From an uncultured Lachnospiraceae bacterium (lineage in GTDB: Bacteria; Bacillota; Clostridia; Lachnospirales; Lachnospiraceae), in contig CANAPP010000012.1 of NCBI GenBank assembly GCA_947363565.1, forward strand, positions 423 through 64,422: 64,000 nt of DNA, in the 5' to 3' direction. Positions 38,465-45,125 of the stretch are shown one piece after another. The stretch's first letter is position 1. Every line of letters begins with the position of its first letter. Under the pieces are notes generated by a model. The model worked only from the letters and a program-made list of their open reading frames with translations, was not told the origin of the DNA and searched no databases. The position numbers were made by a program, and so were the translations under genes.

Positions 38465-39367
38465 TTGAAAGTAAAAATGATGAGGACCACTATGATGCAA
38501 CCATTTCAAATTGACGAAAATCAAGTAGAACAAATTGAAGGCATGACCACAGAGTACCCTTATTGCCTGCATAAACGGGATTTGACGGATTTTATCATTC
38601 CGTGGCATTGGCATGAGGAATTAGAACTCGGATATATTCAGGAAGGCACCAGTAAGATCGTCACAATCCATGCAGAATATATTATCCGCCAGGGCGACGG
38701 GTTTTTTATCAACAGTAATGTAATGGATATGAAAAAAAATGCCGCTCCGGGAGCACGGGTACTGGAAATCAATCACATATTTCACCCTATTTTCCTGAGC
38801 GGACATTTCAAAAGCCGTTTTGAAAAAAAATACTTAACTCCAGTTATCAATAACCACCAGATAGAAGTTTATATTATCCGGAGGGGGCAGCCAATATCAG
38901 ATAAAATTCTTACAAATCTTTATCGGCTTAAGGAATTTCAAACACATGAGAACATGGAATTTCAAACCAGGAATCTTCTGTCCGAAACATGGCTTTTACT
39001 TTTAGAGGATATACAGAAAAATTATAACATAAATAAAATATCAAAATTTGATCAGTCAGACAGAATCCGAAATATGCTTTCTTTTATTCATAATCATTAT
39101 AAAGATAAAATTACAGTATCACAAATCGCGGATGCCATAGGGATAAGTGAGCGGGAAGCTATGCGCAGTTTCCGCAAAAGTCTTAATCAAAGCCCTATAG
39201 AATACCTGATCTCCTACAGACTTAATGAGGCAAAGAAAATGCTGCGGAACAGTGAGCTGTCTATAACGGAAATATGCTATCAATGCGGGTTCTCTGACAG
39301 TTCCTATTTTGGGAAAACATTCCGCAAAGCCTACGGACTTACTCCAAGAGAATTCCGCTGTCATTAA
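38465..39367 (+). CDS. AraC family regulator with cupin domain
   Basis: PWHWHEELE; CGFSDSSYFGKTFRK. Confidence 0.92.
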   Translation: MKVKMMRTTMMQPFQIDENQVEQIEGMTTEYPYCLHKRDLTDFIIPWHWHEELELGYIQEGTSKIVTIHAEYIIRQGDGFFINSNVMDMKKNAAPGARVLEINHIFHPIFLSGHFKSRFEKKYLTPVINNHQIEVYIIRRGQPISDKILTNLYRLKEFQTHENMEFQTRNLLSETWLLLLEDIQKNYNINKISKFDQSDRIRNMLSFIHNHYKDKITVSQIADAIGISEREAMRSFRKSLNQSPIEYLISYRLNEAKKMLRNSELSITEICYQCGFSDSSYFGKTFRKAYGLTPREFRCH

Positions 39368-39395: not shown

Positions 39396-39839
39396 TCAGC
39401 ATAAATGGCATTTTTGCCTCATCGGATCATATAACCGCTTATCCGTCAGATGAAATATGACAACATTATCCTTTTCTGAATAGATCCCTGCAACCTTATA
39501 TGTATGCGATAAATCCATGTCATTCATTGTCATAAGCCCATGCACAAACGCCCGGCTTGTCACCTGCATCTGGACATGATTCACAAGATATATCCTGTCC
39601 GGAACCTTGAAGGACAACGTTTCCGTTTTTTTACACGGTGCTACGATGATGGAATCCATACTCCTGTTCACTTTAAGACATATATACGAGGGTGCCCCAA
39701 GAACCCTTACCACATCTTTTCCGATATTAATCGCATTCCCCTTTCCGTAAAAAGATATCTCAAGCCTTACATTCTTTTTTTCGCCCTTCCATAACCGATT
39801 TGGCGCTTCACTGGCTTTCCGGTCCATTATCTCATCCAT
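39396..39839 (-). CDS. hypothetical protein, paralog of recombinase C-terminal domain
   Basis: RBS AGGAG; motifs YICL..N, IIVAPC, TSRAFV, YKVAG, VIFHL. Confidence 0.75.
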   Translation of the reverse strand: MDEIMDRKASEAPNRLWKGEKKNVRLEISFYGKGNAINIGKDVVRVLGAPSYICLKVNRSMDSIIVAPCKKTETLSFKVPDRIYLVNHVQMQVTSRAFVHGLMTMNDMDLSHTYKVAGIYSEKDNVVIFHLTDKRLYDPMRQKCHLC

Positions 39840-39843
39840 TGTT

Positions 39844-40611
39844 TCATCTCCCTGGCTTTTGTATTGATCCGCAGTTTTTCTCCTGTTCCGCAGGATAGTC
39901 AGCGTATGACTGTCCTGTATATTCTCCCAGATATTCAAATATATTCATCTGCCTTGCCTCAACATAATCGTTATAAGATTTACCGATACAGTCCTTATAG
40001 GCATCCGGATAGTATCTCACCTGTTTTTTCTTAATCTCACCTGTTTCTTCATTGACAAATTCCACCGGCCGGGAAGCGAACATGATCGCTTCATCAAGCT
40101 CAAATACCAAAACCAGCCCTTCCCTGGAATTCGCAACATGTCCGAGGACCTTATACCGGCAGCTTAATTTCCATCCCATCAGTTTATACACATTATGGAT
40201 GAAATCCTCGGAGGTAATGTCACGGTTCACCCACTCGTTATCCTTTTGCCGTCTTCTCGCCCACGCCACGGAAGCGCTCTGCTCCTCCGGACACATAACA
40301 ACCGTCAGCTTTCTTTTGTCTGGATGGATCAATGGCAGAATATATTCCACTCCGGCAAACAGACGGACACTGGCCATGTTAAATGTCATCCTGCCGTATT
40401 TGATACTGACCGCCGGCTTCTTCAGCATAGAAAACTGTGTACGGGGCGGCAGGACATAGCCGTCCAGATTTTCATACTCTAACTCCTGATTCTGTGCCAT
40501 CCTTGATTTCACAAGCTGGCGGATCAGTTCCTGGTCACTGTAATTATATGACTGTTCCTTTGCTCCATTCTTTACCTCACCAGCATCCTGAATTATCTCT
40601 ATATCATCCAT
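39844..40611 (-). CDS. hypothetical protein, paralog of recombinase C-terminal domain
   Basis: RBS GGAGG; aligns by eye to recombinase residues encoded at 40940-41310. Confidence 0.8.
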   Translation of the reverse strand: MDDIEIIQDAGEVKNGAKEQSYNYSDQELIRQLVKSRMAQNQELEYENLDGYVLPPRTQFSMLKKPAVSIKYGRMTFNMASVRLFAGVEYILPLIHPDKRKLTVVMCPEEQSASVAWARRRQKDNEWVNRDITSEDFIHNVYKLMGWKLSCRYKVLGHVANSREGLVLVFELDEAIMFASRPVEFVNEETGEIKKKQVRYYPDAYKDCIGKSYNDYVEARQMNIFEYLGEYTGQSYADYPAEQEKNCGSIQKPGR

Positions 40612-40627
40612 GATCAGCCCTCCGCTT

Positions 40628-42517
40628 CTACATCAGCATTAACATTTCTTCCAACTCATCCCCAATCTCTTTTCTGGCAGGGATTTTCCCGATAAGAGGA
40701 TTGTCCGCAATATTTCCCGCCTCTGCCATATCGTCTTCCGAAAGCGAAGCAACTATACTGTCTCTTCTTTTTCGCATTGCGTAAAGCATCCCGGCCCGGT
40801 GTTTTCTCCATTCCTCCATATCCTCATTATATAAATAAAGCTCACTGTTCTTGTACGGTATGTATCTCGAAGGTAACTGCCGCTGCTCTTCTGACAATAC
40901 TTCCGCTGCCTTCTTTACCGTCTTACTTGCTACGATCTGCGGCTCATCAAGAAAGAAGACCATAAGTTTTTTGCCGCCCCTCTCCTTGGTAATACCGCGA
41001 AACCTGAAACTGTATTTTTTGATCCAGTCCTGCTCTTCATATACAGCCGTACAGAAGGCATTGGCTGAAAATGACAGTATCGGACTGCCTTCTTCGTTTT
41101 TCCACCGAAAACTTCCCGATCCATCGCCGCAGTTTCTGATGATGATCGTCTGCAGCAACGGATGATACAAAAGTTCTATATTTGCACAATTATTAAACCT
41201 GTCATGGCATTTTTTATTGAACTTTATCTGTTTATTAGTTATCGTAAGGGTCGGAGTATCCCAGCCGATAAAATAAGCGCTGTGCGGGGCATAGTATCCG
41301 GTAAAATCCATGGAAAGGACTTTACTGTGCTCTTCCCCGCTAATTATCCTCGCCTCATACTCTAAATGTTCATATTCCTCATCACTGTATACACTGCGTG
41401 ACAGTTCCACCAAAGCTTTTCTGTCTATGCCGCTGAAGCCCGGATGGATACTAACGAATCCCTTTAATCTTCCCGTGTTGATCACACGGATATCCGGTAC
41501 GCCATCCACTCTTCTGCTGGATGCCATCATATGTGCTGCTCTTGCTATCTCCGGAGTAACTATCCCTCCATGGTGATTTGGTACAAATGCACTTTCTCTT
41601 ATGCCGTCGTTTTTCATTTTCTTTCCTTTCTTGTAATCAACAGTAATCGTCTTTCTTGCCCTCAAATCTCCCCACCTTCTTTCGTTCATGAGAATATTAC
41701 TGACCATGTCGCCGTTCCAGTCTGTTCTGCCTGTAAGGGTTTTCCGTCCCTTGTCTGTAAGTATTTTTGCTATTTCATCATAAGAATATCCGTAAATGCG
41801 TGCAAGGAATATAAAACGGACAGTCAGTGCCTCATCCTCGACAATGACAAAGCCGCCCTCTGCCGTATGCCTGTACCCCAGCAGATCTGATACCGGGAAC
41901 TGTCCTGTACAGATCCGCTGATCATAAGAGAGTATCATCCTGCGGCTCTTGTTATCCGACTCCCAGTCTGCAAGCATGGCATGGATGGAAAGCGCCTGAT
42001 GGCAGTCTGGATCTAAGGTATAGATATTTTCCGTCTCAAAATAAACGCCTACCGGATGAGAGGGGTTCTTTGTCTTTAAATTGCTGATCTGTTCTATGCA
42101 GTCAGTCATATTCCTCGCAAATCGGGAGACACTGGCACAAAGAATCAAGTCCATCTTCTTATCTGCCGCGTCTTTAAGCATTCTTTTGAATTCCGTCCTT
42201 TTCTTTATTGAAGTGCCGGTTTTCCCTTCATCCGCGTAGATTTCCTGCATCGTCCAGTTCGGAGTTTTACTGATCTTCTCTGTGTAATATTTCGTCTGGT
42301 TTTCAATTGACGACACCTGTTCCTCACTCTTAGTGCTGACTCTGGCGTATACTGCCACAGCCTTTTCTCCTTTGTCCAGAATAGAAGGCTTTGGTCTGGC
42401 CGGATAAAACACAGTCCCTTCCGGTATCCTGGCATTTCGCACCCTCTGCCTTGTAAAAGTTTTCCGTTGTTCTTGATCTGCATCCTGCGGTACCTGGATC
42501 TCTTTTTCTTTGTCCAT
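40628..42517 (-). CDS. large serine recombinase with atypical C-terminal domain
   Basis: YARVST (Ser codon 42335-42337), IYADEG.TGT...R.EF, SVSRFARN, recombinase domain LGY...EDEALTVRFIF; start at 42517 after GGGGAGG. Confidence 0.92.
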   Translation of the reverse strand: MDKEKEIQVPQDADQEQRKTFTRQRVRNARIPEGTVFYPARPKPSILDKGEKAVAVYARVSTKSEEQVSSIENQTKYYTEKISKTPNWTMQEIYADEGKTGTSIKKRTEFKRMLKDAADKKMDLILCASVSRFARNMTDCIEQISNLKTKNPSHPVGVYFETENIYTLDPDCHQALSIHAMLADWESDNKSRRMILSYDQRICTGQFPVSDLLGYRHTAEGGFVIVEDEALTVRFIFLARIYGYSYDEIAKILTDKGRKTLTGRTDWNGDMVSNILMNERRWGDLRARKTITVDYKKGKKMKNDGIRESAFVPNHHGGIVTPEIARAAHMMASSRRVDGVPDIRVINTGRLKGFVSIHPGFSGIDRKALVELSRSVYSDEEYEHLEYEARIISGEEHSKVLSMDFTGYYAPHSAYFIGWDTPTLTITNKQIKFNKKCHDRFNNCANIELLYHPLLQTIIIRNCGDGSGSFRWKNEEGSPILSFSANAFCTAVYEEQDWIKKYSFRFRGITKERGGKKLMVFFLDEPQIVASKTVKKAAEVLSEEQRQLPSRYIPYKNSELYLYNEDMEEWRKHRAGMLYAMRKRRDSIVASLSEDDMAEAGNIADNPLIGKIPARKEIGDELEEMLMLM

Positions 42518-42531
42518 TGCAAACCTCCCCG

Positions 42532-43008
42532 TCATCGGACCGCACGCATGATGGTCGTCTGCCACTCCCTGAAATCATCGGGATTTAAGGAAATGTATTT
42601 CTCCGCCATCTTAGCCAGCTCCTGCAGTTGATTTTCTGCGTTTCCTATTGTATCGATGTGATAATGCTTATCCTCCGTAATGATATCCACACCATTACCG
42701 AATCCCCTGAGCATCTTAAACAAATAACAGAACTCCCTTGTATCCGCGGCGAGATACCCTTTGGTCTGTACGGCAATGCATTCCACTTTCCCACACCTGC
42801 ATTCATGAAGGAGCCTTAACATTTCCGGTCTCTTAGCAATTTCCCTGTTCCCGGTAATGTCAACGTAGACCCCGGCCAGTTCATACTTATCGGATCCTGC
42901 ATATTTGTCCGCATAATATTTCTGATGATACGAAAGGGCATCGTCCCGCCGTTCACCCCACAGCTTTGCCAGCTTCGCATATCCGGCAACCTTTATTTTC
43001 TTACTCAT
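42532..43008 (-). CDS. resolvase-N-like protein lacking catalytic Ser
   Basis: GYAKLA replaces Y.R.S; retains VYVD.TG...RPEMLRLL.EC..GKVECI. Confidence 0.75.
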   Translation of the reverse strand: MSKKIKVAGYAKLAKLWGERRDDALSYHQKYYADKYAGSDKYELAGVYVDITGNREIAKRPEMLRLLHECRCGKVECIAVQTKGYLAADTREFCYLFKMLRGFGNGVDIITEDKHYHIDTIGNAENQLQELAKMAEKYISLNPDDFREWQTTIMRAVR

Positions 43009-43199
43009 CTTTTGTCTCCGTTTCTGTTGGGACACACCCGTCGTCTGGCAGCCGTCAGGGACATTGTTCAGATTTCCGTCAAGACTTATACTAACTTAAC
43101 TGCTCCGTCATGTCCCATATGGTATACGGATACCATAACCACTTTATCTTCACCTCCGCCACGTTTCTTTTCTGCCTTTGATATATCCACTATGGTTAT

Positions 43200-43249
43200 A
43201 TCATAAGACCGAAACGGTTAGTTGTCAATCTAAAACTGTCCAATTTGGA
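43200..43249 (-). promoter_or_regulatory. promoter/operator region of recombinase operon
   Basis: TTGACA-17-TATGAT (43228-43200); palindromes ACCG-AAA-CGGT (43208-43218) and TCCA-ATT-TGGA (43239-43249). Confidence 0.7.
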
Positions 43250-43301
43250 TGCTTAAATTATACCAAAACAGAAATATAATAATAAAGCAGGAGGTATCGT
43301 C

Positions 43302-43625
43302 ATGGAACTAAAAAAAATCCGTATGCAAAAAGGATTAACACAGCAGGCCGTAGCGGATGGCATTCAATGTTCCCCAACTGTCTATGCCCGATACGAACGC
43401 GGCGAAAGGGAACCTTCCATTGAAATGCTGCTTAAACTTTCTTCTTTTTTTGATGTTACCGTAGACTATCTTCTTGGTAATGTTGAAACAACAATGTCAA
43501 CTTTTACAAAATATGAGATGGATCTGGTCATGGCAGCCAGAGGCGCCGATGACCGGGCAAAAGAAGATGCGCTGAATACACTGCGGGCACATCAGATGAA
43601 AAAAGGAAAAGTCTGCCGGGCATAA
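43302..43625 (+). CDS. XRE-family repressor
   Basis: LTQQAVAD...YARYERGEREPS...VTVDYLLG. Confidence 0.92.
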   Translation: MELKKIRMQKGLTQQAVADGIQCSPTVYARYERGEREPSIEMLLKLSSFFDVTVDYLLGNVETTMSTFTKYEMDLVMAARGADDRAKEDALNTLRAHQMKKGKVCRA

Positions 43626-43784
43626 TGAAAAAAGAGGGAAACATCATATATTTATCCTGGAACTGATAAGGATACCGTTTAACGCATCTGGTCTATATGT
43701 TTAAGAAAATAATTGAGCAGCAGGAAAACAATTTATCACAAAGAGGTTGAACAGAAAATGCAATCATTATGCAAAGAGAAAGAG

Positions 43785-43832: not shown

Positions 43833-45125
43833 TTATTCAAATTCTATAGTCGCCGGCGGCTTAGGACTCATATCATAGCACACCCGATTCACATTCTCCA
43901 CCTCAGAAAGTATCCGGTTCGTTATCGTCTCCAGCACATCCCAGTCCACCTTCTCCACAGATGCCGTCATAGCATCGATCGTATTAATCGCACGGATGAT
44001 CACCATATACTCAAACACCCGCGCATTGTTCTTCATACCTACAGACTTAAAGTCCGGCACCACGGTAAAATATTGCCATACCTTCTTATCAAGTCCGGCT
44101 TTTGCAAATTCCTCCCGGAGTATCGCATCCGACGCACGCACCGCCTCAAGCCTGTCTTTTGTAATCGCACCCAGGCATCTTACGCCAAGCCCCGGTCCCG
44201 GGAACGGCTGGCGGTAGACCATATCGTAAGGCAGGCCAAGTTCTACGCCGCATGCACGCACTTCGTCCTTGAAAAGCTGTTTCAGCGGTTCTACCAGCTC
44301 GAACTTCAGATCTTCCGGAAGGCCGCCTACGTTGTGGTGGGATTTCACCATCTTCGCTGTCTTCGTCCCGCTCTCGATAATGTCCGGGTAAATGGTTCCC
44401 TGACCGAGGAAGTCGATTCCTTCTAACTTTCTCGCCTCTTCCTCAAACACGCGGATAAACTCCCCGCCGATGATCTTGCGCTTCTGCTCCGGATCCGCTA
44501 CATTTTCAAGCTTGCCTAAGAAACGTTCAGACGCATCTACATAGATCAGGTTAGCGTGAAGTTCATCGCGAAACACTTTTACAACACTCTCGGATTCATT
44601 TTTCCGCATCAGGCCGTGATTAACGTGGACGCACACAAGCTGCTGCCCGATCGCCTTGATGAGCATCGCCGCCACCACAGAAGAATCAACCCCGCCGGAC
44701 AGCGCCAGCAGCACTTTCCTGCCGCCCACCTGCTGGCGGATAAGCTCTACCTGGTCTTCAATGAAGTTTTTCATCTTCCAGTTCGCTTCTGCCTTGCATG
44801 TCCCAAATATAAACTCCTTCCATGCATCCTTATCCGGCAGCGCATCAAACTGCGTATCACATCTGGACTGGGGATAATCGATGGAGATCATCGGGATTCC
44901 CAGGTCATAAAGCTCCGGCCTTACCTCAACCGGCGCTCCGTCTACAATGCGGTTCTCACCGCCGTTAAGTACTATGCCCTTTACATTGTCAAATGCCTTT
45001 AACTCCTCTGCCGTGATATCATGGGGATGGATCTCACTGTATACGCCAAGTTCGCGGATTTCTCTGGCAGCAACTGTGTTCTGCGTGCTGCCCAGATCCA
45101 GAATTACGATCAAATCTTGTTTCAT
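43833..45125 (-). CDS. guaA: GMP synthase with shortened, degenerate glutaminase domain
   Basis: ALSGGVDSS, QGTIYPD, KSHHNVGGLP, RQPFPGPGLG, KPPATIEFE; N-domain lacks catalytic Cys and HPE. Confidence 0.9.
   Translation of the reverse strand: MKQDLIVILDLGSTQNTVAAREIRELGVYSEIHPHDITAEELKAFDNVKGIVLNGGENRIVDGAPVEVRPELYDLGIPMISIDYPQSRCDTQFDALPDKDAWKEFIFGTCKAEANWKMKNFIEDQVELIRQQVGGRKVLLALSGGVDSSVVAAMLIKAIGQQLVCVHVNHGLMRKNESESVVKVFRDELHANLIYVDASERFLGKLENVADPEQKRKIIGGEFIRVFEEEARKLEGIDFLGQGTIYPDIIESGTKTAKMVKSHHNVGGLPEDLKFELVEPLKQLFKDEVRACGVELGLPYDMVYRQPFPGPGLGVRCLGAITKDRLEAVRASDAILREEFAKAGLDKKVWQYFTVVPDFKSVGMKNNARVFEYMVIIRAINTIDAMTASVEKVDWDVLETITNRILSEVENVNRVCYDMSPKPPATIEFE

Follow-up and report, generated by a model that had tools for sequence, protein, structure and literature searches.

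For the insertion of large DNA into genomes the chief tools are large serine integrases, whose mechanism is understood via a zinc-ribbon/coiled-coil unit. What takes the place of this unit in an enzyme that lacks it, and what is the role of neighbouring genes that encode copies of the enzyme's own domains? These questions are raised by a locus on contig CANAPP010000012.1 of an uncultured mouse-gut Lachnospiraceae bacterium (assembly GCA_947363565.1), of which we analysed a stretch of 64,000 nucleotides (positions 423 to 64,422, forward strand; hereafter the window). The locus is an operon of four minus-strand genes encoding a small resolvase-type protein (P4), a large serine recombinase and the products of two open reading frames (ORFs), ORF2 and ORF3. 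A first-pass annotation had placed the latter three genes correctly, described their content correctly and proposed that a novel C-terminal domain of the recombinase, here called the X domain, is repeated in ORF2 and ORF3 as part of a multi-subunit recombination system. In this study, we show by profile comparison that ORF2, ORF3 and the recombinase X domain are true paralogues. The features on which the argument rests are the following (aa, amino acids; pI, isoelectric point; AF2, AlphaFold2; pLDDT, its local confidence score).

40628-42517, minus strand: large serine recombinase without zinc ribbon (P0001), 629 aa; Pfam Resolvase and Recombinase domains only
41909-42358, minus strand: Resolvase catalytic domain of the recombinase, residues 54-203 (PF00239, E=2.8e-22), with the YARVS nucleophile motif
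41522-41839, minus strand: Recombinase domain, residues 227-332 (PF07508, E=4.5e-12)
40913-41323, minus strand: X domain of the recombinase, residues ~399-535 (hhalign; AF2 block-mean pLDDT ~78-95)
40631-40912, minus strand: C-terminal tail of the recombinase, residues 536-629; acidic, helical, pI 4.9, partly homologous to the ORF2 tail (hhalign)
39844-40611, minus strand: ORF2, 255 aa, free copy of the recombinase C-terminal half (hhalign 98.8%)
39396-39839, minus strand: ORF3, 147 aa, free X domain (hhalign 97.1% and 92.6%)
42532-43008, minus strand: P4, 158 aa, first gene of the operon; stand-alone resolvase-type domain, predicted to be catalytically dead (Pfam Resolvase, E=1.4e-4)

The recombinase resembles known families in its N-terminal part only. 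The serine nucleophile S61 of the YARVS motif is invariant among 20 relatives (alignment A1), NCBIfam and PHROGs recognise the N-terminal half alone, PDB sequence matches are confined to the N-terminal 350 residues, and beyond residue 332 there is no Pfam match. Pfam detected neither the zinc ribbon PF13408 at E<=1 nor DUF4368 (PF14287). A zinc site in the C-terminus is unlikely, since an alignment of 46 recombinase C-termini contains no invariant cysteine. In the AF2 model of residues 335-629 (pLDDT 79.5; global score, pTM, 0.80) no helix exceeds 15 residues, the tail is made of short helices, and the helices outside the X domain are all short, so that there is no long coiled-coil arm. Both absences noted in the first-pass annotation, that of a CxxC zinc ribbon and that of a coiled coil, are thereby borne out. 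The best explanation is that in the recombinase a basic alpha/beta X domain of ~130 residues stands in place of a lost zinc-ribbon/coiled-coil unit.

The relationship of the X domain to ORF2 and ORF3 became evident with increasing alignment depth. Single-sequence BLASTP related the recombinase to ORF2 (E=4e-6 over 199 aa) and ORF2 to ORF3 (E=3e-5 over 97 aa) and gave no match between the recombinase and ORF3. With shallow family profiles, hhalign assigned a probability of 97.6% to the recombinase-ORF2 pair and only 11-21% to the pairings with ORF3. Deeper alignments were built from 61 loci of species-representative genomes and comprised 46 recombinase C-termini (A4), 59 ORF2 relatives (A6) and 60 ORF3 relatives (A5). 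With these, the probabilities rose to 98.8% for recombinase C-terminus versus ORF2 (E=6e-17, 197 columns), 97.1% for ORF2 versus ORF3 (E=8e-11, 126 columns) and 92.6% for recombinase versus ORF3 (E=5e-7, 105 columns). The three-way paralogy is therefore real: all three pairings of the segments are homologous, the domain first delimited at 40940-41310 corresponds closely to the X domain and aligns with both ORFs, and the motif pairing originally read by eye reappears in the hhalign alignments. ORF2 shares more than the X domain (its residues 45-180, 40072-40479), as its homology extends over residues ~373-585 of the recombinase and takes in the flanking helices and a portion of the tail; ORF3 corresponds to the X domain alone. 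The X domains are basic (pI ~9), the tails and the ORF2 N-terminus acidic.

The X domain appears to be new to the databases. It matched no Pfam, NCBIfam or PHROG family, ORF2 and ORF3 gave no NCBIfam or PHROGs match, and none of 975 ORF2 relatives is named or carries a Pfam domain. A profile search of PDB sequences returned zero matches at E<=10. In the literature we found no description of the X domain or its partner genes. Membership in DUF7765 was considered and rejected as noise, as only 2 of 60 ORF3 relatives match, the best with E=0.018, under the gathering threshold. In the AF2 models, strands and helices follow one another in the same order in the recombinase X domain and in ORF3 (pLDDT 84.9), beta-beta-alpha-beta-beta-(beta)-beta-alpha-beta-beta, which looks like a predicted internal pseudo-duplication. 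Foldseek against the PDB found no match at E<=1e-3 for either the C-terminal model of the recombinase or the ORF3 model. Sliding clamps ranked top for the former, but with E=6e-3 or worse, probability <=0.3 and a template-modelling (TM) score of ~0.1; for ORF3, GAF/PAS domains ranked top and sliding clamps had E=0.2 or worse, with poor TM scores. BFVD yielded uncharacterised phage proteins only (best, Gp105 of Lactococcus phage KSY1, E=1e-5).

P4 is related to the other end of the enzyme. In the family alignment it aligns with the catalytic domain of the recombinase, with the nucleophilic serine replaced by a conserved alanine and the preceding arginine by a conserved lysine (motif KLAKLW); later arginines of the catalytic domain are also gone. 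P4 lies upstream in 46/51 loci and is under purifying selection (ratio of non-synonymous to synonymous substitution rates, dN/dS, 0.04-0.28). Judged by these substitutions and their conservation, P4 is a conserved pseudo-enzyme.

The four genes belong together. Where contig extent permits, the order P4-recombinase-ORF2-ORF3 is near-universal among the 61 loci, which span numerous genera and come mostly from Lachnospiraceae, Oscillospiraceae and other gut Clostridia. The ORFs thus almost always accompany this recombinase clade: ORF2 is preceded by the recombinase gene in 50/53 loci and followed by ORF3 in 55/56. Ahead of P4, 32/46 loci have an AAA_25 ATPase gene, which the window lacks. The recombinase-ORF2 pair is present in nine of 399 evenly sampled Clostridia genomes (~2% of species). 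For close pairs, dN/dS of all four genes is 0.03-0.28 (ORF2, 0.06-0.16), indicating purifying selection. An X-domain profile (A7) built from 146 segments and searched against 1.84 billion proteins matched 2,955 cluster representatives at E<=1e-3, 1,405 of them at E<=1e-10.

Fifty IMG/VR contigs carry a sister family ('type B'), 32-44% identical, which is also present in Ca. Heliusvirales phages from GenBank infecting Coprococcus, Blautia, Dorea, Agathobacter and Faecalimonas; the Heliusvirales paper makes no mention of integrases. Its gene order is AAA_25-recombinase-ORF2'-ORF3', so that the recombinase and two X-domain genes are retained. In an IQ-TREE phylogeny of the X domains of both families, sequences cluster by paralogue type and not by family (support 98/92 for the ORF3 types, 92/97 for the ORF2 types). 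Both duplications are therefore older than the split of the families, and each copy has been retained since.

Irregular forms of the module were also seen. In 5'-truncated modules (L063:4176, L052:9275, L051:9882, L022:10008) homology begins within the recombinase gene or ORF2 and the upstream DNA is unrelated; in Lachnospiraceae bacterium A4 (L022) the module is reduced to ORF2 and ORF3. The viral contigs L127, L142, L122 and L128 carry tandem modules of different families, or a module and a truncated one, within a few kb, which suggests repeated insertion at one edge. In Lachnospiraceae phage NatCom_43249 (L149:2955-4866) ORF3' is followed by two genes, encoding a protein of 338 aa without Pfam match and one of 312 aa with DUF6551. 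Among type B proteins (P0345-P0365, P0282, P0361, P0363), at least 10 have an unrelated N-terminal part (GlmS, TraG-like, GNAT, tape-measure-like and others) in front of the recombinase, joined to it exactly at ...|KSKKNNN, always with a NAY codon before the junction, and at least six more are fused exactly at ...|SRKTKLG. These exact junctions suggest either that a recombination site lies within the type B recombinase gene or that assembly has systematically produced them.

The setting of the operon indicates that the genes travel together. The relevant features of the window are the following.

39423-43682, no strand assigned: shared mobile unit (~4.25 kb) of XRE gene, P4, recombinase, ORF2 and ORF3; 88-91% identity to L006; ends approximate to ~10 nt
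43302-43625, plus strand: XRE/Cro-type helix-turn-helix regulator gene, divergent from the operon (Pfam HTH_3, E=2.6e-18); within the unit shared with L006
43200-43228, minus strand: putative sigma-70-like promoter in the XRE/operon intergenic region, TTGACA-17-TATGAT, 11/12 in a consensus scan; assigned by its position
38465-39367, plus strand: AraC-type regulator gene, neighbour on the ORF3 side
43833-45125, minus strand: guaA, neighbour on the XRE side

The gaps between P4, recombinase, ORF2 and ORF3 are 14, 16 and 4 nt, and GC content is 0.39-0.47 across the operon region against ~0.5 in the surroundings. Window positions 39423-43682 are 88-91% identical to a segment of a mouse-gut Lachnospiraceae (L006), XRE gene included, and there is no match outside this span. 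The segment lies within a polysaccharide-synthesis locus in L006 and between the AraC-type regulator gene and guaA in the window; it is single-copy in the window's own genome. Three further near-identical pairs have differing flanks: L007/L032 on both sides, L015/L016 downstream and L020/L024 upstream. These comparisons of flanks show that the 4.3-kb unit moves between sites. As it contains P0001 as its sole recombinase and is present at ~90% identity between other flanks in a second genome, it looks self-mobile.

The module also marks the edge of an element, since homology breaks at the end of ORF3. In several pairs it stops within or just past the last ORF3 codons; L001 and L002 are 100% identical up to 21-24 nt ahead of the ORF3 stop, the last ~9 codons of the window ORF3 lie beyond the homology with the L006 unit, and the L003 module borders directly on a comM fragment. 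GATAAG-type imperfect inverted motifs are located near both unit ends. The proposal that the element targets guaA was not supported, as it lies 160 bp past the guaA stop, the guaA 3' end is complete, and related units occupy unrelated sites (the polysaccharide locus of L006, the comM fragment of L003). Genus relatives retain guaA but not the region downstream. The window's guaA encodes just 430 aa, with a shortened glutaminase domain; this short form is kept whole-length at 80-85% nucleotide identity in five genus relatives, and contig C4 of the same genome carries a second guaA-like locus.

Further observations concern the unit ends and what lies beyond them. Just outside the XRE-side end, window positions 43690-43746 (plus strand) hold what is left of an alpha/beta-type small acid-soluble spore protein (SASP) gene, a relic of its 3' end whose product ends in ...YMFKKIIEQQENNLSQRG before the stop. 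Intact SASP homologues exist elsewhere in the genome (C10) and in genus relatives, and no matching 5' part was found on the other side of the unit. In the relative G002 a truncated SASP gene lies beside sequence resembling the unit end, without a module. SASP genes were rejected as a general target, given the missing module in G002 and no other locus involving SASP. Imperfect short direct repeats flank the unit (CnGATGnG at 43666-43673 and 39415-39422 in the window, nCGGGGnn in L006); serine recombination should leave just a 2-bp core, and with two cases these repeats may be due to chance. Other units (L006:6890-6925, L013, L003, L026, L032) have a terminator-like hairpin right after the XRE stop, which is lacking in the window copy (43674-43700); the window-L006 homology stops in the hairpin loop, and the window unit may be truncated at this end. 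A tyrosine integrase gene and a helicase gene directly past ORF3 (L006:11821-12942) show that the L006 unit adjoins another mobile element. WYL-domain, dynamin-like GTPase and DUF87 genes, differing between contigs, follow the identical modules of L001 (9720-16843) and L002 (4403-10549) and look like swappable defence-type cargo. As a candidate circular form, MT838295 (5.4-kb 'Bacteriophage sp.') was rejected, being a linear scaffold without terminal repeats.

A simpler relative is present in the streptococcal mef(A)-msr(D) elements Phi1207.3/Tn1207.1. Their Orf2 (370 aa, annotated as resolvase) matches the N-terminal profile of the recombinase clade (E=2e-69) and terminates right after the conserved hairpin preceding X; the X-domain profile in turn picks up Orf3 (138 aa, hypothetical; E=3e-16). 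On the strength of these matches, orf2/orf3 belong to the X-module family. As in gut phage loci, they sit at the element edge with two zinc-ribbon recombinases at the other end; they differ from the window locus in that the recombinase has no fused X domain, there is a single free X protein, and P4 is missing. The Phi1207.3 paper describes three resolvases, proposes the tandem zinc-ribbon pair orf56/57 for integration, annotates orf2 as resolvase only and gives orf3 no function (PMC4260502). Functional work on orf2/orf3 was not found in the literature. The earlier statement that no example had been described needs qualifying, since two family members were already in the literature, one of them called just a resolvase and the other left unannotated.

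What, then, does the module do? Chances seem about even that it serves the recombination of a small integrative element, as an XRE-controlled operon with one active recombinase and three non-catalytic paralogous partners. One model, to which we give roughly equal credence and doubt, assigns the former roles of the zinc-ribbon/coiled-coil unit to the X domains. The recombinase would cut and rejoin DNA in the ordinary serine-recombinase manner; the X domains of the enzyme, ORF2 and ORF3 would bind the outer parts of the attachment (att) sites and/or each other and would supply site recognition and synapsis or direction control, tasks that in canonical integrases fall to the zinc-ribbon/coiled-coil unit together with a separate directionality factor; P4 would modulate tetramer assembly, and each partner would presumably be needed. 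Paralogy, co-occurrence, purifying selection and the old triplication fit such a multi-component system and not decayed fragments. This part of the first-pass proposal is supported, and guaA targeting is the part that is not. The loci are often surrounded by tandem recombinase genes and 5'-truncated modules, so one might see in ORF2, ORF3 and P4 decaying leftovers of tandem recombinase duplicates that are functionless at present, but the frames are intact in ~55 loci, paralogue-specific residues are conserved and the duplications are ancient; as the selection data (dN/dS 0.03-0.28) contradict it, we regard this pseudogene explanation as highly improbable. Other observations weigh against an integrative module of one enzyme and three partners. 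Accessory content varies, 14/46 loci having no AAA_25 gene and the sister family no P4, and the Phi1207.3 variant, with its X-less recombinase and one X protein, means that three X domains are not obligatory. Neither an empty target site, sought in two exact-pattern scans of metagenome contigs, nor a circular junction was recovered. A tyrosine integrase gene follows ORF3 of L006 at a distance of 540 bp. Both AF2 models are of monomers, and we infer protein-protein contacts and DNA binding. Finally, many phage loci have two canonical zinc-ribbon recombinases beside the module; in such loci integration could be their work and the task of the module a different one.

On this last ground, the module might be a third recombinase of temperate phages and not an integrase, serving multimer resolution, inversion or sub-element movement, with ORF2 and ORF3 shaping the DNA as accessory proteins, much as extra resolvase dimers do at the accessory sites of res. 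The two zinc-ribbon recombinases just upstream in many loci and their presence in Phi1207.3 speak for it. We nevertheless hold it to be rather unlikely, because the window, L006, L007, L032 and others have no other recombinase in the unit and yet occupy different sites, and because the module is always at the element edge. Similarly doubtful is the idea that ORF2 and ORF3 are directionality or regulatory factors, decoys or mimics that bind the X domain of the recombinase without contacting DNA and switch integration to excision. In its favour, the domain with which they would have to pair is the very one they copy, the C-terminal unit of canonical integrases is where directionality factors bind, and the operon layout points to co-transcription with the enzyme. 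Constitutive co-expression from one promoter would be odd for a directional switch, however, the X domains of ORF2 and ORF3 are basic like the enzyme's own, and two different paralogues have been retained since before the families split. Going further with the reading as an integrative module, the X domains of recombinase, ORF2 and ORF3 might form a hetero-oligomer on DNA, so that site choice, synapsis and direction are set via separately encoded paralogous subunits, the first serine recombinase of this kind; in this strong form we think the proposal quite unlikely. From the pseudo-duplication and the weak sliding-clamp resemblance of the models, such a hetero-oligomer could even be a clamp-like ring.

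A large clade of serine recombinases thus appears to have swapped the zinc-ribbon/coiled-coil unit and to have distributed the parts over several genes. X-domain proteins make up ~2,955 clusters and occur in ~2% of the Clostridia species sampled, in temperate phages prevalent in the gut and in Phi1207.3/Tn1207.1, the macrolide-resistance elements of streptococci. Should site choice or direction depend on the partners, the module would represent a new mode of serine-recombination control; it would also provide a compact 4.3-kb self-mobile unit for study and a function for many 'hypothetical' genes at prophage ends.

Among known systems, the canonical large serine integrases (PhiC31, Bxb1, A118/LI, SPbeta SprA) share with the window enzyme the Resolvase domain with serine nucleophile, the Recombinase domain and the location at the edge of integrative elements or prophages. 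They differ in that they have a zinc ribbon and coiled-coil motif where the window enzyme has the unrelated X domain. The partners found here are paralogues of the enzyme's own domains, unlike the directionality factors of canonical integrases, which to our knowledge are unrelated to their integrases. In the clostridial transposons Tn4451/Tn4453 (TnpX) and Tn5397 (TndX), a single large serine recombinase carries a small element to several different sites, and the TnpX catalytic domain (2mhc) is a weak PDB match to the window recombinase. The latter has no DUF4368 or zinc-ribbon match, however, and TnpX and TndX act alone; we know of no paralogous partner genes for them. CcrA/CcrB of SCCmec likewise form multi-gene serine-recombinase modules, often with a replication-type ATPase gene ahead, and CcrB is the best NCBIfam resemblance of the window recombinase (E=3e-22, far below cut-off). 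Yet CcrA and CcrB are both full-length active recombinases, whereas the module described here combines one catalytic gene with single-domain partner copies.

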